A DNA stretch of 60,782 bases, the filler included, from Platydemus manokwari (taxonomy: Eukaryota): assembly GCA_037951405.1 (NCBI GenBank). It is 5 parts of 5 records of this genome, joined end to end, with 100 filler letters (N's around TTAATTAATTAA, not from the genome) between each part and the next. Parts side by side here need not be neighbours in the genome. Positions count along the whole stretch, not along the records: positions 1 to 14,853 come from JBBMOY011382536.1; 4 more parts are not named here. One strand, 5' to 3'. This document shows, one piece after another, positions 1 to 38,388 of this stretch (position 1 is the first letter of the stretch; each line of letters begins with the position of its first letter). A program made the position numbers and the translations under genes. The notes beneath the pieces were generated by a model, which searched no databases, was not told where the DNA came from, and saw only the letters and a program-made list of their open reading frames with translations.

Positions 1-898
1 ATATCCATTAAGCAGACTAAGAACATTCTATAATCGACTAATCTTGTTGCATAGTGAGATCTCCTTATTAGTCAGTTCATTAGACATTTGACTTTTGATA
101 TTTTTAACTATATCGAATGGAAAGGTTGATTTCTTTTTCCTACTAGATAGCTTTTCCATTCTAATGAAATAAATTTTTATAATTTTTAATTTTTACATAA
201 AAAATTATTTCTTAATAACACTAATTCTAATTTTGTTTTACTATTCTTTTAATATTCTTATTAAAATATCCTGATTATTTTTATTTCTTATAAGATCGAT
301 TTTATTAAATTCATGTATTTAGTAAAAAGATATTTTTATACCGGGATTCTAATAGGTCACTTTGGGTGCTTTTAGAATAAATGGTTTTTTTTAATATGAT
401 GATCATTTGCATGTTTGAATTTTAAAATTATAAGGTGTTTTGTTAGTTCGCTCATGAATAATCTTAATAATTTTGTTAAATGAATTTTGTTGTGGTGGTT
501 GTTTGGTTTTTATTATTGAATGATTATTTGGCGCGATTTTTAATCTAAACTCACTGGTCCTAAAGAGGCTTCAACAACTGGTATTGGAGACCAAGCTGTT
601 GGAAGGTAAATTTAATATGTTGACTTTCAGATTGTAGCACAGAGAATGCGTTGTCTCTCTGGGCCTAGAATGATATGAGATTTAAAATCTGTTGTTGATT
701 AATTTGATATGTGACGTTTACAATAATTCGAATCGTTAATAATTATTAAAGTAGTGAGAACGAAACTTGGATTTTCAAAAATATTTATTTAAAAAAATGA
801 AGGTAACAATTAATATGAAAAATGAACACAAAAATTTGAGCTAATATCTCGTACCTCGTCCCAGCGATTAACGAGTAATCCGGTATACGGATGGAGAT

Positions 899-1678
899 TG
901 TTAATGATACGGAGAGAAGATGTAATTTATATAGTTAATAAGTTCATATAACTTTAATTATGTTCGTGCTATTAAAATTACGGTTAAATTAAGTTATTAG
1001 ACAAATGAATGACAAAATTGTGCAAATAAAAACTTAAACCTTACTGCGCTTGTAATGGCACTATGCAGAATTTCACTGTATATTAAAAAAAATCATCGGA
1101 TAGCTGTCGATTATTTCGAATATCTCCTCACCAAAATCCAAATGCGATGTAGTCGACAATATGGCTTCTATAAATTTCTTTCTGTAGAGTTATTCAAAGC
1201 AGCTGCGCGTATATGACAATTACCCTGTATCCGTCTTTCTCGTCGAAGATCACAAATATCGATAATTTTGGAATATGTTAGTGATGATTAGATCAGTGTG
1301 TTTTTCGGCTATTTTGTTTTCTCGCACTTTTGACTTTTTGTGGTTTTAGTTGTGTTGTGGGTGGTGTTATGATCAACGTCGTTATTTATATACCGATCAA
1401 ATCCACCCCCTCACACGGCTCTTCATGCCGATCATTTTTGCTAATTTTTTCACACGCTTCGTGTGAATAATTAATGATTGTATCTGATTCTTATTATCTA
1501 TTATAATTGTTTTTATTATTTTTCTACCTGTCTTTTTGCTATTTATTATTGTTATTTATTATATTTAACTCAATATCGACTATTGTTTATTTGCCTGTAT
1601 TTTTTATTATTTATTTAATTTCATTATTTATTAGTTATTTATTTCTCTCCGTATCTTTATCTCTACCGGATTTTAACA
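899..1678 (-). mobile_element. Probable LTR of a gypsy-like element (5' LTR; internal leader continues toward position 1)
   Basis: TGTTAA...TTAACA termini with subterminal inverted GATACGGAGAGAA; minus-strand TATA (GTATATAAATA ~1383-1393); PBS-like TGGGACGAGG ~854-863; downstream leader (555-605) homologous to 6908-6955. Confidence 0.5.
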
Positions 1679-4600
1679 TAAAAACAATAATAATAAAAGA
1701 ATCGTAAATAAAATACAACATGTAAAAATGATAATAAAACGCTAATGTTTATTACTAGAATAAAAGTAAATGATTAAAGTAAAAACCAATGTTTATTAAT
1801 TAGAGCAATTAATCAGTTATTGATCACGTTAATCAGTTATGGATCACGATTGTTGCATTGTTAGCATAATTGACTGTTATTATTTATAGGATTCATTATT
1901 TGGTTTATCGACAGCAGGTCAGTCCACACTCAGGTTCAATGTATATTTTTTAGGGTATAAGGATCTATATTATAACATATGTACAGATATTAGAAGGGTG
2001 TATATGTTTATAGTATGTTTGTAGAGTGCATGTTAGAAGAGCATTGTATGTTAGAAGGGTTAGTAGGGATTTTGAATAAATATGTTTGTAGGGAATTTGA
2101 GAGTGAGAGTGTATACCCAACAATTTCATCATACAGCAAGGGTCTATATATTATGATTATTGCTGCAGGATTGAGCTTCCATGTTGAGTTTTTGACTTAT
2201 ACAAAAATAAAATCATTTTTTATATATTGGTTTTTATTAATTTTTTGTTTTGTATTCAACAGTTTTGAACTAAATTATAAATTATTAAACAGTTTTCCTT
2301 TTTATTCTGTTTGATGAAGGCATTCATAGTTCAACAACTTTCAGTATTTAAAAAATATTGAAGACAATTAATCCTATACAATCCTATCTAATTTACTATT
2401 TGTAAAATTTTTTCGATCTGATTTATTGATGTTATCTTCAATCTTGTTCAGCAGGTTTCGAATGGTTATGGTTTTGAAATTAGAACACTTTCTGGTCCCA
2501 AACATTTTTTAATGAAAAAATACAAAGTTCGTTTTGATGATTGTTTTACATTTTATTCAATATAAAAATGTCTATTAACATAAAATACACAACCAACAGA
2601 AAAAAATTAAACTTAATACAAAAATGTGTTGCTCAATAACAATACAATTACACACCAAGTAGCTAAAAGTTTACACCCAGAAAGCAACTTGGAAATTGTA
2701 GGATTTATAACCCCTTCGTCGTATTGGGTCATAATCAATTGCAAGTATGAGCTCGATTCCATATATGCAGATGAAAACGTATATATTCTTAATATTGATT
2801 TTATAATAATTATCACTTCGAGTTGACTTATTGACTTTCGAACAATGAGTATTTTCTTTAAGTGATCTTCCAATAGCATACTGCTATATAGTTGTAACGA
2901 TTCAGAAATTTATGAACTTACAAGAACATGGAGAATGAATCATTTATCTCTTTATCTTCACAAAATAAGTTTAGTGATTTCTTTTGAAAGAGATCCCTAT
3001 TTTTATATACGGTTACTGGATAATAAAAAATGAAGTAGGAAATTAGTTGTGATATTGTTTGTGAGGATTTTAAAGTTTTTATAAATTATTTTTAATCATT
3101 TGAAAGTAAAATGATTAAAAAAATTTAAGTAATTTGTTTGAATATTTTGGTTAAATATAATTTTATGGGTTGAAATTCTTAGATTCGTTTTCTATTAGTA
3201 TTTTATGAAATAGTAGCACAAAAGAGTTTTTGAAGGGATAATTGATTTCGAGAATACCAACAAAAGTATTTATTGTATATATATAAAATTTATAAATATA
3301 AAAATGCAGATTTTTTCCAAAGTGTTTTTAAACATAATAGATAAGTTAATTACAACTTTCTAATATTCCATATAATAACAAACAAAATTTGAATAAGATT
3401 TTGATTTTAATTATTTTCGGGGCAGTTATGATCTCTTGATCCTGAACATGATTTTTAATTTGAGATATTTTACTTTCACAAAAAATCTTTCGAACAAATG
3501 AATATCAAATATGTATTTACTTTAAATAATTTTGAGTTATCTAAATCTTCTGAAGTTGATACATGAAATAAATATTATCTTAATTAAATTGACGATGATG
3601 CAAGTCAATATTCTTATCTCGATAGTAGTTTCTAGAAATGTTTTCTCATTTATTCAATATTTTCTTGTGTTACTTTCTTATTAAACATATATTCACATTT
3701 AAGTATGATTTATTTCTAGTGATTAATACTTATGATTTTCAATTTTTAGAAACAAATTGGCTAATCAATTTTGAAAATTAATGCTTTTATTTTAATTAAT
3801 TTTAGAAATTGATTATATTATCCATTTGTATATCTTAGGAAATTTTTAATAATTTTAAATTTATTTTATGATTTATGTGTTCGCATTTAATATTTAACGA
3901 ATTTTTATGTTATTCGAATTATATTATTAGTTTTATTTCATTTCTGATGGAGTAATAGGTTTTGAGTTCTGAATTTGATTTATCTATTTTTTTATTATCC
4001 TGGATTTAGGATTTGAATGCGGGATTTTGATTAAGGCCTTTTGATTCTAATTTTGGTTTTAAGAATTAAATTTTGTACCAATGATAATGTCTCATTCTTT
4101 AATAATTACTGTAATAATTGTAAAAGTTGTACACGTTTAAACAAGTTTAAATTCGATTTTAAAATTCATTAGAATTTATTAATCTAAAATATATGATAGG
4201 AAAACTTTGTCACTGGACAGTTTTGTCAATATTTAATTCCATTGACAATTTAGTGAGATTTTAGATTTTAAAATTTGAACAGAAAACTGCATATCTTTCA
4301 AATAGTTTTGATATATGTTGGAAACTGGATTATTCTGTGTTGAGATAATAATGAAGCGGTTTATATTCAATTTTGCAACAAAATCCACTTAATTGTGAGT
4401 TTGGAACAAATTGTGTCGTATTTGTAAGTTTAACACTTCTTGGCACATGAGCTGACACAGTGATGTACTGAAGGAATCTGACGGTGTCTAATAATTTATT
4501 AGTTGTGAAAGTAGATATATGGTTAGACAATTTCACCAATATCTGACTCGTCACAATGCTGAAGAGTGCGTTGGGTATATTAATTAGAATTGGACATAAT

Positions 4601-6227
4601 TAAAAATATTTGAAGACGAATATCTTTTGTTGCATAGATATGATATAAAATTGCCAAAATTAATTTGTGCGTTTCTCTTTATTTTATTGTAGCTTTATAT
4701 ACTCTTTTTGTGTTTATGTTTCTGATTGATTGTTTTCTTAAATCGTCACTTATTTTATTTTCTACCAAGTTGTGAACTGAATTAAAATGACTAGTTCTGT
4801 ATATTTTTTTAAATTCGTTATTATAAGCTGTTCTATAATAACTTCGTTACTAAGAAAAGGAAGTTCATTATTAGGTACAACAATTGACTAAGTGTCATTT
4901 AGAAAAACATGTTTTATGAGTTATAAATTCAAATATTAAATGAATAGCATTTCTTTATAATTTATGTTCAAAATATTACTTTGAGAATCCTAATTATAAT
5001 TGATTATGTGAAAAACATGACTTGTAATTTTTATGTTTCCTTTAGAAACATGTTCTTAAATGAATAACTTTTTTCCTTATCTTTAATTAATTGTATTTAA
5101 CGTGTTTTGTCTGTTTTATTTCTTTCATATCTTACAGTACTAATTAAATTACGAACCCATAATAAATATGCATAACCTTTAAAGTTAGAAATAAAATTAT
5201 AATCTACTCATCTCTTAACAGTCCTAATAAGTGAGAAATTGTCGTCATAAACGTATCTCATAAAAGATTGTCGATAATAAATCTACGTCGAAACTTGACC
5301 GGTGATGATTTTATGTTGAGAACCCTTAACCATTGAAATGCAAAACTAATCTCTAATATATTTTTGAAGAAATCTTTTTACCTCATTGAATCTCATACCA
5401 GAATTGTATATAACAATATCAAGAAAGCTTCCATTAAAGTTTGAAATCTTTCAAAGTCATTCGGTTTTTCTAAACTTTGATTGTCTAATGATATCTATCA
5501 GTACTTAGTGGAAACTAATAAATTTATCTTATAAGTGCCATTATATATATATATATCATTGCTTGTAAATTCTTTATGTACTCTGCATTCAATTTTGGTT
5601 AATGCTCTGCTACTGATCTCAGTTGAATTTCTGCGTCATTCGTAATGTTGATTATGTTTTAAATAATTGATGGTTGGTTCAATTTCTGTTTGGATTGACG
5701 ATTATTCGATCTTCGGTATGAAATATTAGAAATATTTTTCGATTTAATCTTTTACACATCGTAGTTGTACTGTTTATTCTTTCAGATTTGCTTGATTTTG
5801 AAAATTTTATAAAAATCAATATTTATTTCGCATAAACAGGATCTTCACGACGCGGTGGGAAAATCCCTCACGTTGACTTTAAAATGATATAATAAATTTC
5901 TCTTTGAGCAGGATCTTTGTTTGGACGGGAGCCCTACTGGTTGTTGCTTCTGATTGAATTTTTTGACTTTTAATTGTTTTTTGGAGTTTTTGAAGAATTT
6001 AAGCTTATCAGATGCTAAGTACGAAGATATTTGCAACTGTCTGGAGATGATTGTCCCGAAAAATATAGTTGGCAAGTCGATAGTGCTGCTGGAGCTGGAA
6101 GGTGTCGTAGTACGAAGACTTATTTGTATCATATGTGCTTGGACAGTTGAAGTAGAGTTGTTGTAGATTAATTTTTTAATATTATTATCATATGGAATAC
6201 TTACTCACTTAGTTCACTCTGTGTAGT

Positions 6228-6228
6228 A

Positions 6229-6276
<48 letters not shown>
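6228..6276. repeat. (AAT)n microsatellite
   Basis: Perfect AAT run. Confidence 0.95.
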
Positions 6277-7098
6277 TGAAAAAGATTAAAATTTTAAATA
6301 AATTAACGATTGATGTATCACCATATCCAAAATTATTTTTAATTTTGCACACATTTATATTGTGAAAATTAAACTATCGAAATTATAAAATATTAATTTT
6401 TTTATATATTTTATTCACATTATTCCTAATTTGCCAATGTATTCAGAATTTATTACGGTAATATCACCGGAGATACCACAAAGAACTCTCAAGTTAATAA
6501 CAGAATTATCCAAATCAAATATTAAAACTATCATGATGTATGAAAAATAATTTGAAAATAATTAAACCTCTTAGATTAATATAATCAATATTTTGGATTA
6601 CTTCCAACTTAAAAATGTTCTAATGATAGATGTTCTGATTATAATAATCTAAGCGTTCATTCTTTTTTATCAATATAATTTTTAATGATTTTTAAGTAAT
6701 ATTTACAAAACTACTGGAAAACTTGTTGGTACAAAAAATTACTGAAATAAAATAAACAATAACAATTATTTATTTAATAAACATTGGATTTTATGATAGG
6801 GTTGAAAGTTAAGATTCCAAAAACTTAACTTGTCAGAATAAGATCTTTAGAATTTCCGAAGATTGTATTAAACAAAATATTGGTTTATCGGTTAGATGTT
6901 AAATTTTTGGTTCGCAGTGGCTTCAGTAACCGGTATTGAGACCAAATTACTGGAAATTTATTTAGTTTCACTAAAGGTCTTGCTCACAGAAGAATAACTG
7001 ATACTGCGCCTTTTCTAAATGAGATTTAAATGTTTAGCTAAGAGTTTATCTGTTATCGAAAACGATAATAATTACGATTATAGTATCCTTTAATCAAA

Positions 7099-7719
7099 TG
7101 CGGTATGCCGAGTATCGTGACTATTGGATACCGGTTAATAAATGAGTTAATTAAACTTTGCTATTGAGTTATGAACGACACAAGGTTATTTAAATAAAAT
7201 ATTGTAGTAATAAAATTTATTTCCGAAACAAAACGAAACAATTATTAGTTATAAACAAAAAGATTGTGCAAAATGGCTTGTAATTTGACTCCGCAATTAA
7301 CCCGCGAATTCGTAAGACGGACGAAGCAGAGATTATTTGGATAGAGAAATTTAGTTATCGATAATTTTTTCGGCCAATCTCCTTTGTTACCCACTTTTAT
7401 ATAGTATTTTCTCCTTGTGGGCATACGTTGTAGTTGATTATTAATTTTGCGAAAATTTTTTCATTTTTTGGATTTTATTTAACGTTAGCATGGTGATCCA
7501 TTAAATCACCATGGTGATTAATTTAATAAATATTATTATTATGATTGTTACCACGGTGACTTATAATTTCACCATGGCGATGGGTAATGAATTTTATTAT
7601 TATATTTTTTCGGTGATGTGGGCAGTACGTGGGCGATTAATTAATTTGCATTTATTATTATATTTTGTTTATATTTTATTTTATTATATTTTTGGTTCCG
7701 AACAATAAGCATGTCCTCA
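7099..7719 (-). mobile_element. LTR (TGAGG...CCGCA) of the glycoprotein-bearing element
   Basis: Preceded on - strand by polypurine tract AAAAAGGGAAGAAGCA (7720-7735); TG..CA ends; TATATAAAA ~7395-7403; AATAAA ~7217-7222; U3 part homologous to 31650-31830. Confidence 0.65.
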
Positions 7720-7741
7720 TGCTTCTTCCCTTTTTGAGAAC

Positions 7742-8670
7742 TCATTTGAACTTCCGGATCTCTTTCTTTTTCTCTATCTTATCTGGCTGACTGTTTATGT
7801 TTATCCATAATTGTCCTGGGATAAACTCGTTGGCATTTGGATTCAGATTATAATTTTTGACGATGTCCTGACGAATATATTCTTCAGCGTCCTGCCACAG
7901 TTGTTCGAATTCTTTCTCATTCTCTTCTTTTCTCATTTGTTCGTCGACTATGGACTCTTACCATAATTGCTCAAGAAATTGCTCATTCTCCAAAGTGAGC
8001 TCATAATCGTCGCATTCCATAATTTGTTCATGATAAAACTCGTTTTCTGGCTGCTGAATTTTAATGTTATGATTAATTACCTGCACTTTCTCTTCTCGCT
8101 CATTGTCCTTAAGCATTTTGAACTCTGATATTATTTTTCCAGAATTTGGTGAGTTTATTTTCAAATAATTGCTCCTCCGCAGACTTGAGCTTCCAAGTTT
8201 GATTTCTTCTGATTATTGAATTTTCAGTTAAAAGCTCTTTATCCACCCATTCAAATACATTGGTGGCCTTGGTTATCATCTCTTGCTCTTCTTGAATCTT
8301 TTTCTTCCATCTAGATTCTTCATTGTCATCTTTTCTGTCTTTCCAGTTTGCTTCTATATTTTGATATATGCTGATTATTGCATCTATTTCATCACATCGA
8401 TTGCCATATTGTGGCATCCTCTTTCAAATGATTGCTGCATGAATTTCTTTCAGATTTTTGCTTAAGAAATGTCGGCTTTCCTTTATTTCTTCTTCTACTG
8501 TTATTGCACCTCTCAAATCTCTTTCTCCGAGTGCTTCCTCAAGATATATCGATATTGCTTTTCTTTTCATATCGTATCCGTCTAGGATTTTCCCTCTGGC
8601 GATTTCTATTACTTTCTTGCTTGCCTCCTCCGCATCCATTTTTCCTCTGATTACTGCTTCTGACGTTTAA
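7742..8670 (-). pseudogene. Fragmented unknown ORF(s) of retroelement 3' cargo (charged/coiled-coil)
   Basis: Consecutive - strand ORF fragments 8424-8639, 8109-8417, 7958-8164, 7742-7936; the last ends just before the PPT. Confidence 0.45.
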
Positions 8671-8673
8671 TTT

Positions 8674-9365
8674 TTATTCTCTTGATAGTGTTTGATTTCT
8701 GATCTTGGGCAACAAATCTGATTGAAAATATCTTCCCTTTTGAAATTTTTGAGAGCTTTCCAGACTGGGTACTCTATTGTTAAAGTCGATGGCATATTTC
8801 ACATCGATGAAAATGGTTAATTCTCTTTCCTCTTGTTGGCTCATTGGAATAATATTTCTTATAAAGGACATTTAATTTTTTGGTTGCATGAACGGCAAAA
8901 TCCTGGAGATTAAATATTTGCGCCTCGTGAAATTCTACTGGATCCAACTGGTTGGGTTCTACTAGTTCAATCATTAGAATGTACGGAATACTCTTAGATT
9001 TTATCCTTATCTGGGAGAATTCATTTTGAAAATTTGGTTTTTTCTGGGGTGTCAGATAAATTGAAATTGATGAGTGTAACTCCAATTCAATTCTCTCTTC
9101 GGGAAATTCTACGATCTCCAATTCTTTCGGGACATATTGTAATATCGGTAAGATGCCTTTGAGCTTGAACCTTCCTTGTTCTTGTTAGTGAAGTATTATC
9201 GCTGTTCTTAATTGTTACGCTGTTTTATTTATTATTATTTGGAATATAGGTCATATCTGCGAATATTCTTCTTCCGATACCAAAGGGTGCTTTTTTAACC
9301 GCCGAAAGAATGGCAGTATAAAATCTTCTTGGGAAATATTGAACTATGCTTGTTACGGGTTCCAT
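8674..9365 (-). pseudogene. Fragmented unknown ORF of retroelement cargo
   Basis: ATG at ~9365 (MEPVTSIVQYFPRRF) plus overlapping fragments 8780-9121 and 8674-8871; GC-richer than flanks. Confidence 0.4.
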
Positions 9366-9759
9366 TATTTCTACTAAGGTGTTAAAAATTATACTAAAAT
9401 AAATAAAGGGGTATCTTACTTCTACCGTTGCTGATCGAGAATTTTTGTTCAGTAATTTATGACTATTATCAACTGGGGTTTTGTTTATATGAATTTAGCG
9501 CTCGGTTTTGATTGGCTAATTTTGTATGGACAACTTTCTTAGTGGGTAGAATTTTTGAGATAATTTTCTTATTGGTCAATTTATTTTTTCCCAATATTTT
9601 TTTATTAGGAGTTTTATGAGAATTCAATTTACATTATTTCTTATTTTATTTTTACAAAGTCTAAATACCATATTCATGCTCCGAATGAAAAAAATTATTT
9701 TTATAATCATATCCTAACCATTTGACAACGCTCGTACGCCGGCAAAATTGCCGAGAGTG

Positions 9760-10200
9760 ATCCTTAAACCTATTAGCCCTTCCAACACTCTGGCCAATAA
9801 CTATCGATCCTCGTAGTAGACTATTAACTTCTTCCTTTACTAGCAGTTCATCTTTCTTTCCATGAACTGTTTGATTCATAGGGCCATGTTGAGGCGGGTT
9901 CTGTAGTCTATTATTCTTGCCCTTGGGGCTATCATGTTGGAGTATATCAATTTACCTTGGTAATTCAGGTTGTTTATCGCTATCGGGACAAGCTCATTGG
10001 CGAATTGCGGTTGTGCTAATCCCATTCTTCTTATTATCCCCTTCGGGTCATATTCATCTTTAAGAAAGACCCGTGGTTCTGTATTTGGAGACAGTCGTTG
10101 TCCAGCTCTCCAAATTTTTTCCTTCGACTGCCTAGGCACCATGCTCAGTTTGGTTGATTCTTCTTTTTTTCCTTCGTTAAATTTTAATTTTTAACTCATT
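9760..10200 (-). pseudogene. Fragmented unknown ORF of retroelement cargo
   Basis: ORF 9876-10142 with frameshifted continuation; bounded by AT-rich spacers. Confidence 0.4.
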
Positions 10201-10583
10201 TTTGAAATTTTGAAAATCCAATCTTAATTGAACCAATGAATTTTCCATTGTCATTAAATATTGACTGTTTCATATTTGTGCTATTTTGTTTTTTTTATTA
10301 ATTCTTTGTTCACCTGTATTGTCTCTATTTAGGGGCTAGCTCTGGGTTAGATTTGGGTTAGATCTCAACATATCTCCGCCCTCTTAGGTTTTTTCGTCCT
10401 GAAAAATAGGCAAAAAGATTAGATATAGACAGTTATTTACACAGTGGAAAAGGTTATAATGCTACATAAAAATGTTAACATAAATATGTCTATAGTACAA
10501 ATGGCTGTAATAAAAATGGTGTCTACAACGCCGTATAATGTCAGTAAGGTGGTGGCTACAACACCGGATAAATGTCAGTATTG

Positions 10584-11490
10584 TCATTTACTACTTCTTT
10601 CCTCATGGGAAATTCGTCGATTCTCGTTTCGGTGTAACTTCTCATCCCATTGTCCAATGAGATCCTCTTCCTTGACTTGATCTTCTCCTTCATTATGGAA
10701 ATGCCGTATATAATTTCGAGGGGTAACCTTTGGTCGGAGTATTGGTTCCCCAAGGTGATCTTGGACGATGATTGCCTGAACTACTTTATTGGATTCCTTG
10801 GCCCGTGAGTGGTTGAGGATTCCTACAAAACGGGCTGCCATAAATCTCATTCGATCAGGATGATCCGCTAGTTGTCCTCTGACGAACGTCAAATAGTGTT
10901 TGATTCTTGGTGGAATTCCTGTTTTGAATGTAATTTCTGAGGGTAAAAGTCCCTCTTCATTTTTGTCTCGACCGAATTACATGACGAGAGTGGTAGGTAT
11001 TTTGGCAACTTCTAGCATAATACGATTTATCCTTTTTTCATACATCAGAATTTCGGGGGCTGTGCTTGATTCGAGATAGATTGGTTCGTCGAGACCTGGG
11101 ATAAAGACGAGGATAGATTGGTTTGTAGTGGTTATCCATGTAGGCGGTTATTGATCTTCTTGAGAACTTCCGGGTATGATTTTGGTAAGAAGCCTTCGAA
11201 TTGGTGCTTCAACGTATTCGGCTGTGGATACTATTTCTATTTGTTGGGTATGAGTACATGAGTGTGGTACCTTCGACATCGGCAGTTTTGTCGTCGCATT
11301 TCGATCACCATTTCATGCCATTGCATTGGCCCTTATTGAAACTACTGTTTGACTGGATATAATTTGGAGGTTGGTTGGTGTTCCAAGACTAACTGGATAT
11401 TGCAAAATGGGGTCGTCCGGTTATGGTCCTTTGCTGAATGTAATGAATTAGTAATCATAGCTGAATAATACGAATAGTATGTGCAGCCAT
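10584..11490 (-). pseudogene. Decayed ~300-aa unknown ORF directly downstream of the glycoprotein
   Basis: Reading frame continues upstream of ORF 10584-10892 through a few stops (...ILVFIPGLDEPIYLESSTAPEILMYEKRINRIMLEVAKIP...). Confidence 0.45.
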
Positions 11491-11566
11491 TGATTAGATA
11501 TAATATTACGATATAGATATAATTAGTTATATTGATTTTAGTTCGACTCTTTTGATTCTGTAATTA

Positions 11567-13350
11567 TCATAAGGTGGTACTGGTAAAGTACGTTGGGTGT
11601 GGCAAGTAATTTCTATATACGGGTGGCTTATGCCGTCCTAGCAAGAAAGCGCTTATGGGAAATAAGATGGAGGACACGAATGCTGTTGCTACAACTGCGA
11701 TTATGGCTCTTGACGAATATGGGTCTGAAGGTTCGTTCGATAGTTCCCTTATTCCGAGTCCTTGCTTTCCTGATTCTCGATCGTACTCGTAGTGGTGTCC
11801 ACACGGTGTTCCATTGCTTCTCCTCGTTGTCGAGCGAGGTATGGCATATTGATCTTTTTCGGTAGAGGTTTTATTCGAAGTACTTCTCTCCATGAGTTCT
11901 TCAGGCTGATCAAATTGATTTTGTTAGTGCTTTGTAGGGTGGTACATTTTCTCTGGGGTGTGATTTCCTTTTGGATTTCTATACTGTGCGGCAGTATACA
12001 GGTTTTTACATACTGGTGTGGTTCGCGACCAATTGCGGTAGATTCGTCGGATTATCTCGGTGATTTCTCGATCACGTAGTTGAGGAAACATTAAGTCTCT
12101 TCGTGCGTCTTCGATATCTTTAAGGTTGTATAGCTCCTCCTTATTTTCAAGTGAATTAATCGGACCCAATCTGACCCGTTCTTCTATTATGCTAAGGTTT
12201 AATGTCTGCACGAGTAGTCGGGATAATCCTCGCAACGTTAATGTTACCCAAGCGTTCTTGATTTTGTATAATGGGAAGAAGAGTGGTGTGCACGTTCTTT
12301 TGTAGGTTTAGCGGTTGGCAACATGTATCTAGTCTTCCCTTGATAGATGACTTTTGGCTTGTTTGTGCATTCGTGACTTGGGCCATCATGACTTCTATCT
12401 CAGTGCATCGAAACTCATACCAAGCTTCTTCATTACTTTGGCATACTGTGTCTTTTCCATGATAAGGGGCGTGATTAAATCTGGATTCGCTATTGCAAAG
12501 TCTAACCGGTTTCGTAAGATTTCCCTGTCTCATTGGTTATCAGTGCTTCCTGGTAGACTTCGAGTAACTGAATGGAGGTCGTGGTAGAGGAAGTCAACTT
12601 TATTCATGTAGATGGCTATTTTGATGTCATTCTTGTGAAGGATTTGAGCATTTTCCAGTCTTTCCCTGCTATAGTACACTCCTTAGTAATTGGTGCTATA
12701 GAGTATATTAACACATTTCATGATTGGTGACTTGATTACTACTAGGATTGCTTCGGATGACTTGTTGGACATTAGTATCGTAGGTACTGCTCGTTCTCTG
12801 TCATTGGAGTGTTCTGTTGCTCCTCCCAACTGTTTGTTTATTACCTAGGTGCCCGTTAGTCTTTCGTAAACTAATTTGGTACCGGTTATAGCAATAAAGG
12901 GTCCACTCTTGAGTAATGTTAGTCCACAGTAGTCCGCTTCAGGAGGTCGGTAGCGAAGTACTCCTTTATTTACTGTGCATTTTCGATTTTTTAGGTGGCA
13001 TTTCGGATACTGTTTCATTAACCCGGTTTTAGCATCGAATGTTGCTTCGAAGGAATGTAGTTCTACCAGGCAATCTTCGATGGTGACTACCTAGGGTGAG
13101 AATATTTCATCCCTGAATTTGGTTCTTTCGGTGCATTTTCCAATTTGAGCTCTCTTTCCTCCTCTAATTACCGTTTTTTTGGTTATCATGTTTGGTTCGA
13201 TAGTTAGGCTTAGTTCGGGATCGATACTGAATGCATTTCTGCAATCAGTTGACGCTATGTTCAACATTGGTGGGATCAACTTGGCTTCTAGTACCGCTGT
13301 TCGGTTATGATATCCACAATAATACGCGGACGTTGGCTTGAGCTGGAACT
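11567..13350 (-). pseudogene. Decayed viral envelope glycoprotein, chuvirus-G / gB-like class III fusogen (env-like)
   Basis: Frameshifted fragments: AYYCGYHNRT; Cys-rich IEDCLVE..KCHLKNRKC; LYSTNY..NDIKIAIYMNKVDFLY; EAWYEFRCTEIEV..CCQPL; LYNLKDIEDARRDLMFPQLR; C-terminal hydrophobic AIIAVVATAFVSSILFPISAFLLG. The motif order matches chuvirus-type G as I recall it. Confidence 0.65.
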
Positions 13351-13719
13351 AAAATAGATTAATTGTCATAAAATAACAATATCGTAATCAATTGTGGTAA
13401 TTGGTAAGATGGTTAGTGGTTTTTTGGTTTTGCGATTGGCTTTTATAATTGGTTTTGAGAACTTCGGAACTGATGTGGGTTCAGCAGAATTTATTTACTG
13501 ACAATATCAAATCTAGCAAATGAGAGTTCATTGAAACTGATCTATTCAAAATTTACACTAGTTAATAATAAGTACTTTATATAATAATTAATTATAATAT
13601 AATTATTGTTGTGACAATTTTAAATTGAATTAAAATTTTAAAGATTTAATTTTGTATAAAATTTAGTTGTGTATAAATTATTTAATATAAAATCAAATTA
13701 ATTAGTTTAAATTTTATTT

Positions 13720-13780
13720 ATGCTCTCGTGACTTCTAATTTCGTCTTCGATGCGTGTTTTATAAAATAGTAGCGGCTTAC
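13720..13780 (-). repeat. Dispersed repeat; other copies at ~15981-16032 and ~16250-16303 (+)
   Basis: GTAAGCCGCTACTATTTTATAAAACACGCATCGAAGACGAA (rc) matches GTAAGTCGCTACTATATTATTAAACACGCATCGAAAACGAA at 16250. Confidence 0.7.
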
Positions 13781-14065
13781 AATTATTTTTAATTAATTAT
13801 CAAATTGAATCACGATCATCCATCATACTCGTAGCTCAATCTGTAATCCATTATGAATTGGATTTCTTCAAGTTTTCATACTCCCACGGGATTTGTCCTG
13901 ACGACAATAATGCATCAAAATTTATTACCTATCTGCTCTGTAAAATCCCATCGAGTTCTGCGTCGTTTTTTAGTCACAATATAGTAATCCTGGGTTTTGG
14001 AATTTTTGATGGATTAGTATTTAAATTAGAATATAAACGGATGGCTATCTTCTAGATTTCTTTTA

Positions 14066-14122
14066 TTCCTATTTGTTCCTGATCCGAGGAACGGATGAGG
14101 CCCACGGAAGTCCGAAATAGAA
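14066..14122 (+). ncRNA. Degenerate hammerhead-ribozyme-like motif 1
   Basis: TTCCTAT / hairpin GTTCCT-gatccg-AGGAAC / C(G)GATGA / stem II GG..CC / GAAA TAG; outer pairing ATGGCTA(14041)/TAGCCGT; core has a U->G change. Confidence 0.5.
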
Positions 14123-14176
14123 CACTAGCCGTATCATAAAACCACAATCATCATAATTGAAGGCTTCGAGAGATCT

Positions 14177-14230
14177 TCCTATATCTCTCAACCGAGATAC
14201 TGATGATGCTTAAGGAAAGCCGAAATAGGA
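14177..14230 (+). ncRNA. Hammerhead-ribozyme-like motif 2 (type III-like)
   Basis: TCCTA-TA, stem I TCTC/GAGA, CTGATGA (14200-14206), stem II GCTT-aagga-AAGC, GAAA, TAGGA complementary to TCCTA; mismatch at the base of stem II. Confidence 0.6.
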
Positions 14231-14853
14231 CTAATTTTCAACAAAAGGTAGTTTATTTGTATATTTTTATAATTTGACCACTAACAATACTATTTTTAAA
14301 ATTACTTTATTTAGTAACTTATTTTATTATTCTTTTATAGTTAAAAATATTCTCCTTATCTATTATTAAGAATGCAATTTAAAAATACTGCGACAACTCA
14401 CAGAAATGTATATAATATTTTTGTTAGTTGTTTGTATTTCAGAAAGATTTAACTCATAAAAGTAGAATAATAATAATACTTAATTTGTACCTGATTTCGA
14501 AGGTGTGGTACTATAAACCATAAAAATAATTTAAATAAATAAATGAGGATAAATGAAAATATATAATTATTAAATCAAATATTGTACAAATAATAACATC
14601 AATTTACAGATATTAATTAAAATGACAATTGAATAAACAATAATTATTCGATAACAAATAATTAGGCATTTAGTAAACTTTTAATTAGAGGGGATCAAAT
14701 CTTTATTGCTCAAATGTTGAGTGACATCAGGATTGCAATGGACGAGTTGAGAGTTGGGAAGCTGATAGACAAAATCATTATAGGGTTTTTTGAGTTTTAA
14801 AATAAATTTTGCACAATTTAAGATAATTATTTACATGAATAAGAGAATTGTTT

Positions 14854-14953
14854 NNNNNNNNNNNNNNNNNNNNNNNNNNNNNNNNNNNNNNNNNNNNTTA
14901 ATTAATTAANNNNNNNNNNNNNNNNNNNNNNNNNNNNNNNNNNNNNNNNNNNN
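14854..14953. other. Assembly gap with artificial TTAATTAATTAA spacer (also 25987-26086, 38289-38388, 50982-51081)
   Basis: Identical N44-TTAATTAATTAA-N44 blocks. Confidence 0.95.
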
Positions 14954-17199: not shown

Positions 17200-18600
17200 G
17201 AAATAATTGCTTAAGGTATTATTTATAAGAGAAAAAGAAGTACAAACTTCAGGAAAGTTATCGACTATTGGAAATATAAATGGGATGTGGATACCAAGCT
17301 ATTCAGAGATTAAAAAAAATTATTATGTTCAGCGAAATTTTGAAAATACAAAAGTTTCACAACTCACAGAACATTTGATAAAAACGGAAGAGAAAATCTT
17401 GAACTTAAGGAACATTACGCGGACACGAAACTAATAACGGTAGAAGAGTAACCATAAAAAAGACGAGAACAGTCTTCATTTATCAGTGAAATAAATAGTA
17501 GAAAACTATACAATGATAGATATGGTTTTCAGGAGAAGAAAGACGAATGATAGTGACGCGGACATTGTTTCTGGTGTAGTGAAGTAGGTCATTTTAGAGA
17601 TCACTGTCCGATAAGAAACGAATGTCATATATGTGGACATGGAGGTAATGTTTCCCGAGAATGTAACATGTTTAGAGACTGCAATCAATCATCAGAAAGC
17701 CGAGAGAGATAATCAAAAAATATAAGAATGATGATAATCATCAAAAAGTACGGATAACCGAGATGATGTATTGCAAGAAAGACGAAAATGAATTAAGAAT
17801 AATACTTCAAATAATTTTACCAGTGTCGTCAATGACATGATGAGTTTATGCCGTGATATCAGAAAAATGATAGATCTTTATAATGAGTGAGAATATTCAT
17901 GAAATTGGGAACAACTATGCGAGAAGCACTCATTCTGAATCTTCCTCGAGAAAACAGAACACTAAGATCAAAGAAAACGGATCGGAAAAAGCAATGGCAT
18001 GTGGATCGCGGTTGTTAACGAGTAACAAAAAGGTCTACTGTGTGACGAGGAAAGATGTTTTTAACATTGATGGGTTTGTTATCCCTTTCAGAGAAAATCT
18101 GCATGGACAGAAATTTGTTGTACGCATAAAGAAAAAAGCCTCAACTATCTTAAAAGAAATAAAAAATCAATTAGATGAAAGGACCATGTTTGAGGTATTC
18201 CTTAACTCTTGGATTTATCGTTTTGCAAAACAAAATACCATTTTGACAGTAAGCGGATTGAAGTTCAGTTCATAGTAAAAGAATTTGCTAAATTCCGGAT
18301 TCCTGAATAGCTTAGCTCGTCTTATCAGCACTAATCAAATAGATTAACAGAGCAAGTCATTTGTACGGTTAGAGTTTTGGTAGTCTAGTCGCTAAAGAGT
18401 GAAACTAACATTAAGAAATGAATTTTCCATCAGCACTACTCGGTAATATTCTACCAAATTCTCTTCTTTTTAAGTCTCTTGTAGACAGAAGATAAATCTC
18501 AAATTTGAAAGTGACTACAAAGATGTACCGAAAGACATCGTGAGTAAAATTGGTGCCTTACAAGATGTATACAAGGGATACCGATAGAAGAGGGCATAAA
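17200..18600 (+). mobile_element. Highly decayed Ty3/gypsy pol remnant (protease-like and integrase core)
   Basis: DSDADIVS (D-S-G-A-D-like); WIYRFAKQNTILTVSGLKFSS and SSYQH*SNRLTEQVICTV resemble the rve core. Confidence 0.55.
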
Positions 18601-22449: not shown

Positions 22450-24800
22450 AATTTATCCTCACGAGAAGTTATTTCAAATAAGAAGTAAGAAATTGGTTGG
22501 TTAAATTCAGCTATAAGTTTATCCCAATCATCGAGGATATTTTCAGACATCACAGTCACTACCAACTCTAAAATTGTCCCAATTATGTTGGTAGAATGAT
22601 GTAAGCTCTTACGTAATGCCCTATTTGATAACCACTGTTCTTACCAGTTCACCTTCAAACGCCTATCGGATCACTTTAATTATTTGTGGTCTCCAAATTG
22701 GTAAATGGCCTATGAAACGCGATTCATTTTTATATAAAACAGAACTCAAACTTACTGAACCGACCAATAAATACTTAAATTTGGATTGAAAATCTAGTCT
22801 TGAATGATTCTTTAGTTTCACTAGGGATACTTTGTGATTAGCACAGATCTGACATTTTCAAACTCTATGTTCAATATTTCTGCTCATATTCGATTGGTGG
22901 TAGAGATTCTGATTGTAAATAAGTTGCTTATTACGGCCTATATGCTATAATTCTTCGTGAAGCTATTGAGTTAACTTTTGTACACGAGACACTGGAATGA
23001 CTACGCTTCTTCTCATTAATCATAGTATGGGAATAATTTCCTTACCAGATTATATCTCTCAAAATTTTACTAGTAATCACTCATATTGCCTTAGAACCCA
23101 CATTACTCGTCTGATCTCGAAACAACTTACCTATTGAGTCTACACCCACATCATCTTGATAATTTTTTCCAAGTTCATTGTTATAAGTAGTTCAAAGGTC
23201 AAGTCTTTGTCCTAAATGCTTTATCACTCTGGTATTTTGACAAGTATTGAGAATATATTGCTTCTTATCGTCATTGCAAACATTCCCTATTAACATGGTT
23301 AGATCTACGATTTAGCCTTTTTCAAGTAAAGTCTTGGTAATCCATTCATGATACTTATTTTTTCAAAGCAAATATTTATTGAAATACATTGTGAATACGG
23401 AAATCGATAAGAGGAGCTTTCCGGTTATGAAGTAATCCTTTATTTGATTGTTCAAGTTTCATGATGACCATGAAATTAATATTTAAAGATTGTTATCAAC
23501 GATCTGACATCGCCAATTGATCCAAGATTTCCATATGTATCTGAAATCATTTCTCTGTTTTGATCTGGATACACCGACATCAAAGATGTCAATAGAGTAT
23601 CTTTAAAATCTTTTTACTATCTATCGCTTTCATTTGACTTCTCAATCTTCTTATCAAACCCAAACAATAATGAATATAGTGGTACAGTTATCATTGTATA
23701 ATTCCTAATAAATCTCCTAGAATAAAAAAGACACATAAACTACCGCAGTTGCGTCATACAAACCGGTATTACAGCATTTATGATTTGCATGCATTCTGAT
23801 GTAATCGTATAGCGAAAAAATTTCAAAAGCATGGTGTCAGATAAGCATTTGTAGTGTTCATTCCCGCCAGTAATTCAATTTATTTAAAAATCTTGAAAAG
23901 ATTTGCGTCACGGTAATTTTCCAAGTTCTATTTTATCAAAATATCGTCTAGATAAACCAGAACTTTGTTGTAAATAAATTATAAATTATTGGGTTTATTT
24001 AAATATTGGATCCATTAAGCTCTGGAATGCAGTTGGATTTGTCCGCATGCCAAAAGGCAATTTCGTCGAAACAATATTTTCCGATTATGGTGTTAATAGA
24101 GGCTATTAATTTGTGTTTTAAAATTATGGCTACACGTATCGAATCTAGCATAGTTTCAATATCGAGTGAGAGAAATATCAATTTCTCTGACAAATCACAA
24201 CATTTGTGGAGATTCAAGCACATCCTTATTGAACCATCTTTTTAAGAACGAACATTAAAAGGTATTTTCATTTCTATTACAGATATTACAGTTCTTACAG
24301 ATTCGATTTCCAGATAATTGCCTATTAATTCTCCAATTTCCTTTTCTAAATTCGTCGGTGTGCCTTTTGCGTATCTGGTAAATCAGTCCTTCTTTTGCCA
24401 CAATTGTAAATTTTATTTAACTTTATTAATCCGATATGAAACGCTGGTGCTACAAAAATCGAGGTATTTTTCCTATAGTTATTCTTATTGAACCATCATT
24501 ATCTCTGGCAATGCATTTCATTTCTAAATCAATTCTGTCTTTGTCATCAAGAATTTTAGCAATTTCTAATATATCATCAATCATTTTTATTTCGGTCAAA
24601 AGATTCAAAATATTCTCAAATCTAGGTGGAATACTTTTAGATTTTAATCGATTCACAAGACTTATAACCTTATCAGGTCTAATTACAGCTATTACTTTTG
24701 TCAATTTTAGATTTAGATTTTTTTTTATTAATAGCCCTTCGATACTTTTCGAGATATCTTCACTCATAATTGTGATGAATGGTCCAGAGTGCTGCAGGAA
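22450..24800 (-). mobile_element. Decayed Ty3/gypsy gag-pol remnant
   Basis: KKDGSIRMCL (~24240) and frameshifted KLPFGMRTNPTAFQSLMD (~24060-24005) RT motifs; degenerate knuckle ~24400; RNase H/integrase-like traces downstream. Confidence 0.7.
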
Positions 24801-26719
24801 TTAAATCAATCTCTTATTAAATGTTATCCAACTCCATTTCTTTTAATCTACCCTTTGAAACATATTCGAACTTTTCACTAACATTTCTTCTTTCCTCACT
24901 TAAGTATCACTTCTGCTTCTCTCACTTACTATTACTATTAATTCAGACCAACCGACAAGATAGCTACAGCGTTTGTGACCGCATTATTTTAATCATCATC
25001 GTTTATGATTTCAGATTGGACATCGTATTTATCCCGAAAACAAAATATTCTTATCTGTTTGTTGCGGAATATTCTAGTTTGAAACCACTATCTAAAAATG
25101 TCTTCGTGAAAAATAAAACAGTAGCGCAAGGTGAACACTCGTTTCTTTCGTGTTCCATTTTTACACAGCAAAACCATGCATCTAGCCAAAGATATCGATC
25201 TCATATCGTGGGTCTACATCATAAAATCTTGTTGCAACCATATGTACTTATATTTGATGATTGCAGTCTATGAACCCAAACACAAATTCTATCGATTAAC
25301 AAGGATGAGTTTTCCTTGAAAAATTTTTTTATAATTTGTGGTTATCTGTGGTTTTTGAGGCTTCTCAGGGTGTCAAGGTTTTGGTGCGCTCAACTTGTAA
25401 GTAAGAACATACTCTAATTTCCTAACTCTAAGTTTAACACTACGATATTTTTTTATCCGATATATCATACCTAATTAATGCTTAGTCATGAGTCTTGTCA
25501 GAGTTTTTATTGTGCCGAAAAAGCTCTAAATCATCATCAGTTATTGGAGCGTTATCTTTACAAAAAATACATCCGCCGAAGGCATTTATGTCCTTCAAAT
25601 ATATATGAGATAAAATTTAGCTCCATCTGATTAAATATAGCGAAAGCATGAGCTTCATGAGTAGCTCCATCGAAAAGTTTTGCTTTGGGATTCAGTATTT
25701 GAAGATCTTTTCAAGCAATGCCGAAATATCTCATCCAATAAGCAGTGTTTTAAAAAATGATTTGTTAAGAATTACTAAAATTTTTAAAATCACATCAATT
25801 AAGCAATCGTAATACGAGCGCTTGATTATGAAAGTGGTATAAGTCATTTCAACATTTCAAAACCAAATTTCCATTTAAAAATGGTAACAAATTTCACAAT
25901 CATATGAAGTGCTGATTTACCGGCGCTAATTAATTGTCAAAATATTTCATTCTATAATACACAAATATTTTTTAATTCTTTAACATNNNNNNNNNNNNNN
26001 NNNNNNNNNNNNNNNNNNNNNNNNNNNNNNTTAATTAATTAANNNNNNNNNNNNNNNNNNNNNNNNNNNNNNNNNNNNNNNNNNNNTGTAGGGATAATAA
26101 TCAATTATTATGTTTTGCAAGGAGTTTATTGATTTGAGACTAATTGATATGTGGTATCTATTGAATGAAGAATCGATTTTTATTAAATGATAGATATTTA
26201 AATGACAAATATTGAACCCTCCAGTAATAGAAAGAAAAAAGAAACAAATTATTATATAAATAAAATATAAACAAAAATTAGAGATTTCATATTATCGATT
26301 TAATCATAAACAGAAACACAATATTTAGACGTGGAAGAGGAATACATAGAAGCATTAAATATAATTATTGATGGGTTCATTTTTGTGTTTTATTACGATA
26401 ATTTATTTTGTGTTAATGGGTCTCTTGAGAGGCTTCAATAATTCGTATCATGGTGAATTATCCGTTATATAAAAACATCGAATATCCACCCTATCTAATT
26501 TATATAATAACTGATTATCACCAAAACGATTTGCAGTTTCATTGACAAGAAATAATTCGCGAATAATCAATTAATCAATTAATCCGTACTTGACAAAAGA
26601 TTATTAATAATAACCGTACTGCAATGATCAACAAGACTGTCTTAATGCTTTTTTTGTGAAATAAGAAAACACTAGAACAGTAAAACAACAAAAATATATC
26701 AGTCAAATTACATAACGCG

Positions 26720-31628: not shown

Positions 31629-32354
31629 TGTCAGCCTCAACGTACTGTAGAGAACCAAAATATAAATAAATATAAAAATGTAGTTGTCCACGTACTCACA
31701 CGTCACCGAAAAATACAATAATAATAAAAATTATAATAAAATTCATGATTCATCAACTTGGTGAATTAATACGTCACCATAGTAACAATAATGGTAATAA
31801 TATTTAAAATACACATCACCATGGTGAGTTGCTACAAAATTGTTCTTCATTGATTCGCCGAAATTGTGATTCGCTACGGGAATTATTCATCCGATTCAAC
31901 GAAAAAACTGTTCATCAGATTCAACGTCTCGTGCTTCGAATCAATCGTTAAAACTCTCAACTATATTCGTTATTTGGATTCAACGTATCGTTCTACAGGC
32001 GTTTCGGATACATTCAAATCCTCAATAAATTTGATCACTCGCATCATCGGATAAGCTTGTTACTCAATCCTGAAATGCAATCGGTAATTATTTCAATCAA
32101 TTATATGAGTATCGTACAAAGTCGTAAGAATTTGTACTGATATTCATTCATAAAATTATATAGCTATACAAAGGCGAAAGCATTCAGTGCGCTGTAAAGC
32201 CACAAGGATTTGCAGACGCCACCTTAATTAATAAGCTAAAATCACATCTTCTTTAGTTTATCGTCCGAAGTAAGGCGGTAATTAGTTCCTTACGTCTATT
32301 TGTTTTAAACTCTTCAGGATACAACACTGCTCTGTGTCAAATTGTTGCATGACA
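31629..32354 (+). mobile_element. Probable 5' LTR (TGTCA...TGACA) of the gag-bearing element
   Basis: Inverted TGTCA/TGACA ends; 31650-31830 homologous to rc of 7490-7700, including CCACGTACT..TCACCGAAAAA and TCACCATGGTGA. Confidence 0.55.
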
Positions 32355-32798: not shown

Positions 32799-33920
32799 AT
32801 GACGGTAAAGATAAGGATTCCGAACAAAACTTCACTCCAGATAATTCATCTACTAGGCACAAACGTTATCCTCGGAAAAAGAGACCAGTCATGATTAGTT
32901 ACACAGAAAGAATAAACCAATGCGACCATAACGCAAGGCAATCATCGGATACCAGATGGAGGCCAGCACTTCAAGAACAGTCCTATTATCTCCATCCCAA
33001 TCAAATCATACAAGGGGGAGCCAGGGCTCTTCCAACAATTCATGGCTGATTATTACCAGTTATCTGACGCAAACGAAGTCAGCCCAAATATTATGATCAA
33101 GCGGTTACCGATATACTTATCAGGCATGGCTCGCAAAAAATCGTCACGCTGAAACCTTAGGCCACCTGGACCGAATTCAGGCAAGCACTGGCCAAACAAA
33201 TCTTACCAGCGGACACAGGACACCTGTTCCGACAACGATTTAACAGGCGCAAGCAAAACACGGACGAGCATGTCAGCGAATTTGCTCATCAATTACTTCT
33301 CCTCGCTGAACGGGCGTTCGGAGAACGATCACGATGGCCCACGGATACAAAATTAAATGTAAAGGATCACTTATGGGAAGGATTCCTTCCCCACATCAGA
33401 GATGCACTCAGTTTACACATGGGCGACGATTTCGATGATCTCTTCCAAAAATCCAGATTGGTTGAAATGAGTTTAGGAGATGGGGAACTCATGTGCTCAT
33501 CATATGAAAAACTACGAGCCACGGGCACTCAACATAAGGATAATTAACCAGAGAAAAATAAACCGGCTGATCCAAAAAAGGGATCCAGTCAGAACAGGAT
33601 GTGCCAAATCTGCCAGAGACAAAATCACGGAACTCGGGATTGCAGAGCAACTACAAACGTTAATGACGAGAAATTAAAGTGCCAAAAATGTGGGTTGGAC
33701 AATCACATAACAAGTGACTGCACCAGCACAGGGCTGAAGTGCGAACATTGCGGTAGAACCGGACACGCCTAATCCATATGCAGAACAAAGAATAACCCAC
33801 CGAAGAGGGACGAGGTTAACCAACAAGGAAAAATTAAATGCTATCGATGTAACTAGTTCGGACACGTGAGCCGAAGCTGCCCACAAAAAGAATCAGAAAA
33901 GTCGACTTCAGTTTTAGTAG
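32799..33920 (+). pseudogene. gag: Ty3/gypsy-type gag (capsid plus 4-5 CCHC zinc knuckles), frameshifted
   Basis: IKRLPIYLSGMA, WTEFRQAL, RRKQNTDEHVSEFAHQL (capsid Q..E...F motif); knuckles CQICQRQNHGTRDC, CQKCGLDNHITSDC, CEHCGRTGHA*SIC, CYRCN*FGHVSRSC. Confidence 0.85.
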
Positions 33921-37700: not shown

Positions 37701-38388
37701 AATGTGGTCAAGTGCTGCTTGACTGTGGTTTTATACCCTTTGCTAAATGAAGATTTTGATTTACTTAATCTCACTAAATGATTTACTAATTCTTTTGAAT
37801 TTTTGGTTTAATATCTAATCACTTATTTCATCCAGACTTATGTGTGGTATTTTAATTATGCGGATTAATTTTATACTTTCTTACCATTAAATTTATGACA
37901 GTGGAATTATATAATTGCAAGGAATTATTTCTGAAATTATTCGTGATTTAATGAGCAATATTTTGGGTTATAATTTTAAATAATCAATATTCGAGGTTAA
38001 TAAATTTTTAAATCTTTCGAATATATTTTAAAAATAAAATAAAAAGTAAATGAAATTTAAATCGTTTTTAGAAAATAAAAATGCGAATAATTTATTGATC
38101 TTGCAACCAAAATATGAATATTGAAAAGTCATGATAATAATCACGTACAGTTTTTGAGACATTAAATACTTATTATAGTATTTTCATTGCCAATTTCATA
38201 ATAATATGCCTCAAATCGCAAATGAGAAATGTTCACATTTCAAATTCAAATTTGAAATAATAATTGAAAATTTGAAAAAAATTTCATANNNNNNNNNNNN
38301 NNNNNNNNNNNNNNNNNNNNNNNNNNNNNNNNTTAATTAATTAANNNNNNNNNNNNNNNNNNNNNNNNNNNNNNNNNNNNNNNNNNNN

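Follow-up and report, generated by a model that had tools for sequence, protein, structure and literature searches.

Two homologous, decayed hammerhead ribozyme motifs are recognized by their sequence at positions 14067-14230 of the window, the 60,782-nt stretch of Platydemus manokwari DNA that was analyzed here. Our best explanation, to which we give a probability of about 0.5, is that the pair is part of a mobile, retrozyme-like repeat, ~0.5 kb long and non-coding, whose RNA is predicted to cut itself twice. The window is made of five contigs joined by artificial linkers (14854-14953, 25987-26086, 38289-38388, and 50982-51081), each with two runs of 44 N around a 12-nt A+T word; distances across the linkers are meaningless, and the ribozyme pair lies on the first contig (1-14853). 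A triclad planarian host is likely, as judged from an innexin fragment on a different contig of the assembly. This fragment (38391-38786, minus strand) is a first exon-like part cut by the contig end and is 71% identical to Dugesia japonica innexin7 (best of 5 matches among 137 candidates). The features of the ribozyme segment are listed below.

14067-14122, plus strand: hammerhead motif 1 in the type III model, with helix III 14067-14072/14117-14122, helix I 14074-14079/14086-14091, core 14092-14098, helix II 14099-14103/14109-14113, GAAA 14114-14117, and a predicted cut after 14073.
14177-14230, plus strand: hammerhead motif 2 in the type III model, with helix III 14177-14182/14225-14230, helix I 14184-14189/14194-14199, core 14200-14206, helix II 14207-14211/14217-14221, GAAA 14222-14225, and a predicted cut after 14183.
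14123-14176, plus strand: spacer between the motifs, 54 nt.
14037-14135, plus strand: long hairpin around motif 1, whose 5' flank pairs with the 14125-14132 region.
~13555-14240, plus strand: multi-copy non-coding repeat, delimited by depth bins and joints, left end weakly defined.
13607-13781, plus strand: solo LTR, TG...CA, 175 bp, with a 5-bp target-site duplication (13602-13606 and 13782-13786).

The original prediction had placed a tandem pair of hammerhead-like motifs about 108 nt apart. Both were found there, on the plus strand, and the spacing is exact for the core-to-core (14092, 14200) and GAAA-to-GAAA (14114, 14222) distances; the cuts predicted after 14073 and 14183 lie 110 nt from each other. 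Judged by the type III model, motif 1 retains 12 of its 17 pairs and 11 of its 12 core positions, and motif 2 retains 15 of 17 pairs and all 12 core positions. The CUGANGA, GAAA, and U-H core is complete in motif 2 and one position short in motif 1. The eight defects of the window copy are one core position and five pairs in motif 1 and two broken pairs in motif 2. Helix III is 5-6 bp in both motifs. Helix I is a simple 6-bp hairpin with a loop of 6 nt (motif 1) or 4 nt (motif 2), and the motif 1 form corresponds to the usual type III build as described in the available sections of PMC7936874. Loop 1 of both motifs ends in CC and loop 2 of both holds GG. A loop 1-loop 2 contact of 2-3 bp is possible from these sequences, and contacts of this kind are described as common (PMC3088659, in part).

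Folded alone, motif 2 is predicted to form the three-way junction, with pair probabilities of 0.73-0.96 in helix III, 0.80-0.87 in helix II, and 0.42-0.48 for the outer four helix I pairs. Motif 1 folded alone does not form it, and in a 216-nt context neither active fold is populated. The decay noted originally is thus borne out by the eight defects and the missing hammerhead fold of motif 1. The window copy is predicted to be largely dead, motif 1 not cutting and motif 2 cutting weakly at best. Aligned to each other, the motifs are identical in 40 of 56 columns, as diverged duplicates (nhmmer E-values of 0.0017 and 0.0004). The earlier argument from different, covarying stems stands in part: one clear two-sided change is found in helix II next to two one-sided changes in helix I, and the stems, being those of duplicates, are not independent. 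The two motifs by themselves therefore offer thin covariation. Two further ideas, another decayed core (a third one) within the spacer and a tandem period of ~55 nt, were rejected since their alignment scores were no better than those of reverse-complement controls. It is the remaining copies in the genome that lend the motifs strong support.

These copies were found among the contigs of one public sequencing run, which may be the window's own source, aligned to 7000-14850 at a likeness of at least 80%. Single-copy depth is ~15, and summed depth is not a copy number. The listed positions within 14049-14207 have a depth of 500-2450 and 20-61 contigs each. The bin mean depth is 2355 at 13812-14073 and 810 at 14074-14335 and falls to 152 on the right. 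The ribozyme segment is a multi-copy repeat, with tens of loci as the safe estimate. Forty majority differences are listed, each with a share of about 0.85 or more (705 further differences are unlisted), and they appear to mark places where the window copy is the outlier. Four of the 40 lie inside the motifs and all four turn a defect canonical: the deviating core position of motif 1 (matched to canonical in 23 contigs of other copies), two of its helix I pairs, and the helix II closing pair of motif 2. Substitutions able to restore the canonical form number 19 of 330, which gives a rough p of 1e-5 for four of four by chance. The family therefore has, or had, well-formed ribozymes, and we hold with high confidence that it is a real hammerhead family. 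The comparison of genomic copies proposed with the original prediction, with 20-61 contigs per listed position and all four listed motif differences pointing toward canonical, was favorable. The other four of the eight defects are outside the listed differences, and the family may share some of them.

The descriptor for a shuffle test was composed after the motifs had been seen. It finds motif 2 at two deviations, and shuffled windows gave 0.05 matches each. Two matches within 300 nt occurred in 0 of 100 shuffles at up to two deviations and in 1 of 100 at up to three; motif 1 is four deviations from the descriptor and the shuffles covered up to three only. In Rfam no match reached the gathering score in the window, and none was found in 13500-14800. 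A search with 211 nt gave a weak RF00008 match to motif 2 only (15.3 bits, E 1.1, gathering score 48.5), and both motifs missed the gathering score of this family. The Rfam check suggested originally was negative at threshold. The scan is insensitive here because a well-paired type III motif of phage origin was missed as well. That motif came from DNA pattern scans. Viral contigs gave two loci, which represent one phage type III motif with unrelated flanks, and none with a tighter pattern. Prokaryote genomes gave no match to the tandem pattern and three stemless chance matches to the single pattern; metagenome contigs gave one chance match, inside a bacterial gene. The phage motif is type III hammerhead-like and well-paired in two phage contigs (L002, 2998-3070, plus strand; L001, minus strand). 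It has an AGGAG run in the 3' strand of helix III a few bases ahead of an ATG, and its folding might gate translation. Further ribozymes were considered at 6900-7800 and 10100-10600 of the window and dropped, as no ribozyme family matched.

The repeat is ~0.5 kb long once the solo LTR is removed, and the hammerhead pair is at its right end. No Pfam match was obtained in six frames of 13787-14262, where one 96-codon open stretch is also without a match. No tandem array over the motifs, terminal repeats, or flanking direct repeat was found for the repeat, and no primer-binding site, polypurine tract, or target-site duplication was seen by eye round 13555-14240 (the repeat ends are roughly known). 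Among the joints listed (15 of 199) are three variants, each seen in a single contig: one fused hammerhead (joint 14102-14214), a copy in which motif 1 is without its body (14076-14125), and a shortened copy (13595-14062). Of the between-letter rows, 12 of 58 are listed. Fifteen contigs in four listed joint rows omit the solo LTR, joining 13590-13607 to 13781-13814; these joints are weak, with a short side of 27-38 letters in sequence of 10% GC. The solo LTR is a later insertion that split the window copy, between the ribozymes and env (the glycoprotein gene described below). It belongs to an unrelated, very abundant LTR family, with primer-binding-site-like loose ends behind 13781 in the contigs. 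Its membership in the ribozyme repeat was ruled out by its own target-site duplication. On the next contig (~16248-16410, minus strand) a related LTR end precedes a TGG that resembles the start of a primer-binding site, and an RNase H remnant lies on the opposite strand at 17874-18275. Directly right of the ribozyme repeat is an A+T-rich hairpin (14321-14440, plus strand, z -5.0).

The 3' end of the spacer pairs over the motif 2 cleavage site (7 bp, p 0.94-0.99). A designed block of motif 2 by the spacer was rejected, with 147 of 1000 shuffles equally stable. The long hairpin around motif 1 was matched in stability by 4 of 1000 flank shuffles. The 110-nt piece between the predicted cuts, taken from the window copy, self-pairs about as much as its shuffles do (z -0.9 linear, -0.8 circular).

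The glycoprotein ORF named in the original prediction is part of a block of broken ORFs on the minus strand.

11567-13531, minus strand: broken stand-alone fusion glycoprotein (env) gene, PF24664, start codon at 13531 inferred.
10584-11351, minus strand: ORF2, broken, ~250 codons, behind env.
10369-10385, minus strand: polypurine-tract-like run then TG, found by eye, candidate start of the 3' LTR of the env element.
7279-10370, minus strand: candidate ~3.1 kb LTR with several ORF remnants and a TATA-like box near 7403.

When 11570-13348 (minus strand) is translated in a single frame, stops as X, it matches PF24664 with 44.9 bits (cut-off 27). The gene has many stops and one out-of-frame stretch, and it ends with a membrane anchor and its own stop. 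A HMMER search with env found 42 relatives, the best of them 25-31% identical and located in gag-env-protease-pol polyproteins. Among the 21 of 42 scanned, ten have a retroviral protease, four of these also a reverse transcriptase, and none an RNA-virus polymerase; one relative shows a weak Bcl-2 match ahead of the glycoprotein. The domain order of these relatives corresponds to that described for Burro elements of planarians (PMC6431247). An 18-row tree, which has no RNA-virus outgroup, puts the window env on a long branch among Burro-like rows, grouped with two short fragments (support 97/98). From these comparisons env is a relative of the env part of Ty3/gypsy polyproteins of the Burro-like kind. 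One protein of this kind, HBK71150.1, is labelled a Flavobacteriaceae bin protein and is an env-protease-RT-integrase retrotransposon polyprotein; it is likely eukaryotic contamination of the bin. No gag or pol was found by tblastn with 18 relatives as queries against 1-14853, and word-based protein searches returned nothing for env or ORF2. No relative of ORF2 was found, with low-recognition Atlas matches only, and ORF4 had no Atlas match. Seven ORF remnants searched by phmmer against the fetched proteins (a tiny database) gave a best E of 0.008. In viral contigs, 0 of 100 and 0 of 42 pattern matches were confirmed as related loci.

Multi-copy patches are found over env (depth 420-580, 2-4 contigs) and the env-ORF2 spacer (depth 1108, 7 contigs), and the bin means over the env 5' half (12764-13549) are 25 and 83. 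Both ends of the candidate 3.1 kb LTR are multi-copy (depth bin 10144-10405, 2458), and no second copy was found on the contig (1-14853). A poly(A)-binding-protein motif, PAM2 (PF07145, 20.8 bits, cut-off 20), is present in one ORF remnant within it (minus strand), for which no relatives were found. Position 7481-7670 is a multi-copy, strongly folding palindromic segment (z -4.5 and -5.2) with a 72% relative at 31653-31830. A G+C-richer multi-copy stretch at 7280-7345 has a small hairpin, a depth of up to 1350, 43 contigs, and no Rfam ribozyme match. Elsewhere in the window, pol, gag, and reverse transcriptase remnants of retroelements are found at 23360-24358 (minus strand), 33161-33883 (plus strand), and 44072-44500 (minus strand), and a tandem repeat (298 bp, 3.1 copies, no hammerhead match) at 48222-49126.

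Several other explanations of the hammerhead pair were considered. Chance resemblance in decayed repeat DNA would fit the sub-threshold Rfam scores, the absence of a hammerhead fold in motif 1, and the ease with which gapped patterns match by chance in big collections (the stemless L003-L006). It is hardly credible against four of four majority differences toward canonical, the descriptor shuffles, and a motif 2 that folds alone. As to the class of the fold, counts summed over both motifs are higher for the type III model, with 27 of 34 pairs (type I 19 of 30) and 23 of 24 core positions (type I 21 of 24). Type III is likely the better fit for both motifs, as predicted originally. An alternative type I fold had also been proposed. 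It is weaker than suggested: motif 2 is without U16.1 and has 10 of 15 type I pairs, and motif 1 in the window copy is also without U16.1, with 9 of 15 pairs. The proposal keeps some ground in that the U16.1 of motif 1 is supplied by a majority difference downstream of it (44 contigs of other copies). By sequence, type I is unlikely for motif 2 and possible as a second fold of motif 1, given U16.1 in other copies. We consider it unlikely that type I is the functional fold and the segment either the terminal repeat of a Penelope-like element or what is left of an ordinary metazoan non-LTR retrozyme. Animal hammerheads usually take the type I form (PMC7761336, PMC7229834), as do those of schistosome repeats (PMC8490949), as far as the available text of these papers goes, and three listed majority differences, the one giving U16.1 included, improve motif 1 as type I. 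Against this, the pair adjoining the type I cleavage site of motif 1 remains mismatched, the U16.1-giving difference also completes the outer helix with the 5' flank, and one of the four motif-internal differences (helix I) helps only type III. There is no tandem array, and no reverse transcriptase match, Penelope type included, was found in the first-contig stretches scanned. The original comparison with Penelope-like elements does not hold, with a helix III of 5-6 bp and no Penelope ORF found beside the motifs.

It is a more serious, still doubtful, possibility that the pair is part of a lineage of giant Ty3/gypsy elements in planarians, env-bearing and related to Burro, and of the short non-coding derivatives of that lineage. 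The hammerheads would then be a cis-element built into the LTR element or its deleted derivatives, antisense in the env leader. They would cut antisense or read-through RNA and so limit double-stranded RNA and piRNA supply, or trim an antisense transcript. Planarian transposon piRNAs are mostly antisense (PMC8532177, in part). The original distance of ~700 bp to the glycoprotein holds when counted from its last open stretch (13348). Counted from 13531, the likely start codon, it shrinks to ~535 bp, 180 bp of which is the later solo-LTR insertion; with that LTR taken out, ~355 nt separate motif 1 from the inferred start of env. The LTR-skipping joints, weak as they are, carry the repeat in fifteen contigs to ~13555, ~20-30 nt from this start. 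The env patches, the env-ORF2 spacer, and the bin at the candidate LTR start are multi-copy with depths of the same order as the ribozymes. On the other side, none of the 8 contig pieces listed (5405 more are unlisted) bridges env and the ribozymes, and the joints rest on 27-38 letters of 10% GC sequence. With a depth of just 25-83 across 12764-13549, most ribozyme copies are likely not attached to a close env copy. Relative to the candidate polypurine tract the ribozymes run antisense, in which they differ from those of plant LTR retrozymes, and the contig has neither pol nor a second LTR. The repeat could either be derived from the leader of the env element or have landed beside env. The reserve expressed originally, that linkage to the glycoprotein is unproven, is upheld. 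We give very little weight to another origin of the ORF block, an endogenised negative-strand RNA virus (chuvirus-like, glycoprotein first) whose RNA the ribozymes cut or circularised. The glycoprotein is in the Monjiviricetes fusion family, several ORFs run in one direction with A+T-rich spacers, and the ribozymes are on the opposite strand. However, the scanned env relatives carry retroviral proteases (10 of 21) and reverse transcriptases (4) and no RNA-virus polymerase, ORF2 has no relative, no related locus was found in the viral contigs, and env is much less repeated than the ribozyme segment. The env tree, with no RNA-virus outgroup and a long branch, is neutral on this point.

The reading we prefer, a non-coding retrozyme-like repeat, starts from the hammerhead anatomy, the more canonical form of most other copies, and the later solo LTR that splits the window copy. 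From established hammerhead chemistry, an RNA of an intact copy would be cut twice, giving 5'-OH and cyclic-phosphate ends and freeing 110 nt. By analogy to retrozymes, the cuts would provide repeat RNA with defined, ligatable ends, and the reverse transcriptase of another retroelement would copy this RNA back into the genome. The two serial sites may be redundant because a fused single hammerhead is found in one contig and motif 1 is without its body in another. The 110-nt piece could rebuild one hammerhead with its ends adjacent because both motifs share the upstream helix III strand. A stable 110-nt circle is not supported because the piece is not notably self-paired (z -0.8). Env would be a bystander, at most a distant parent, and the reach of the repeat to ~20-30 nt from the env start would have to be treated as coincidence.

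The consequences differ between the preferred reading and the env-linked one. If the repeat is independent, it would be a new retrozyme build with two different ribozymes in series. If instead it is linked to the LTR element that carries env, an animal retrovirus-like element would use self-cleaving RNA. This would be the first animal LTR retroelement (endogenous-retrovirus-like) with type III hammerheads and the animal counterpart of plant LTR retrozymes. The ribozymes, opposed to the env strand, would cut antisense RNA or free a re-closable 110-nt RNA. Transposon silencing by antisense piRNA is well studied in planarians, so the env-tied case would be testable there. In the literature searched, type III hammerheads were reported neither for planarians nor for any LTR element of animals; the genome-wide hammerhead surveys of 2010-2012 in the journal RNA and supplementary hit tables, outside the scope of this search, could hold planarian entries.

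The comparison with known systems follows the available sections of the cited papers. Type III is assigned to plant LTR retrozymes and type I to animals (PMC7761336, PMC6155905, PMC7229834, PMC4918200), a split that is repeated in bioRxiv 10.64898/2026.07.22.740005. Type III in animals is not new because extended type III motifs have been reported in termite and dipteran genomes (PMC7936874). These HDV-like insect motifs share with the window pair the type III form in an animal genome and a possible Watson-Crick loop 1-2 contact. They have a long helix I with an internal loop and an extra hairpin, whereas helix I in the window is a simple 6-bp stem, and the termite motifs are described as isolated, whereas the window motifs are paired and in a repeat family. 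Penelope-like elements and Terminons also have hammerheads near the retroelement end, sometimes two close together, but these are type I with helix III absent or 1-2 bp and an adjoining Penelope reverse transcriptase (PMC4209133, PMC6431247); Penelope hammerheads are described as minimal (PMC4209133; bioRxiv 10.1101/2021.04.23.441226). Burro giant Ty3/gypsy elements share a planarian host, accessory ORFs, and an env homologous to mononegavirus fusion glycoproteins. The Burro env is in frame between gag and pol, while the window env is a separate ORF with its own stop followed by an unrelated ORF, and the description in PMC6431247, in the part available, mentions no ribozyme. Burro has a long LTR pair; on the first contig a single candidate LTR (3.1 kb) was found, and no partner for it.

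Retrozymes, the comparison made originally, fit only loosely: the two motifs do not form a tandem repeat unit, and self-pairing of the 110-nt piece is not high (z -0.8). Plant LTR retrozymes (Cervera et al., 2016, PMC4918200) are alike in being non-coding repeats with two canonical-sized type III motifs per element, an association with Ty3/gypsy, and a long hairpin able to block the ribozyme. They have one hammerhead per LTR, 600-1000 nt apart, whereas the window pair is non-identical and 110 nt apart. They also have a primer-binding site, a polypurine tract, and a 4-bp duplication, none of which was found for the window repeat, whose ends are roughly known. The window repeat further differs in its animal host, the absence of a detected LTR pair, and a released piece that is not highly paired. 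Metazoan non-LTR retrozymes and the schistosome SM-alpha/W-elements are likewise multi-copy, non-coding repeats with hammerheads, low in G+C, and from animals, flatworms among them (PMC7229834, PMC8490949, bioRxiv 10.64898/2026.07.22.740005). They are type I with one motif per 150-450 bp tandem unit, whereas the window has a dispersed type III copy with two different motifs. Monomers of metazoan retrozymes are reported to be more than 70% paired, and the window 110-nt piece is no more folded than shuffles. By these membership features the repeat would fall outside both retrozyme classes and outside Penelope elements, and its retrozyme-like working is inferred. A paired, canonical-sized type III repeat family in a flatworm would cross the division between plant type III and animal type I.
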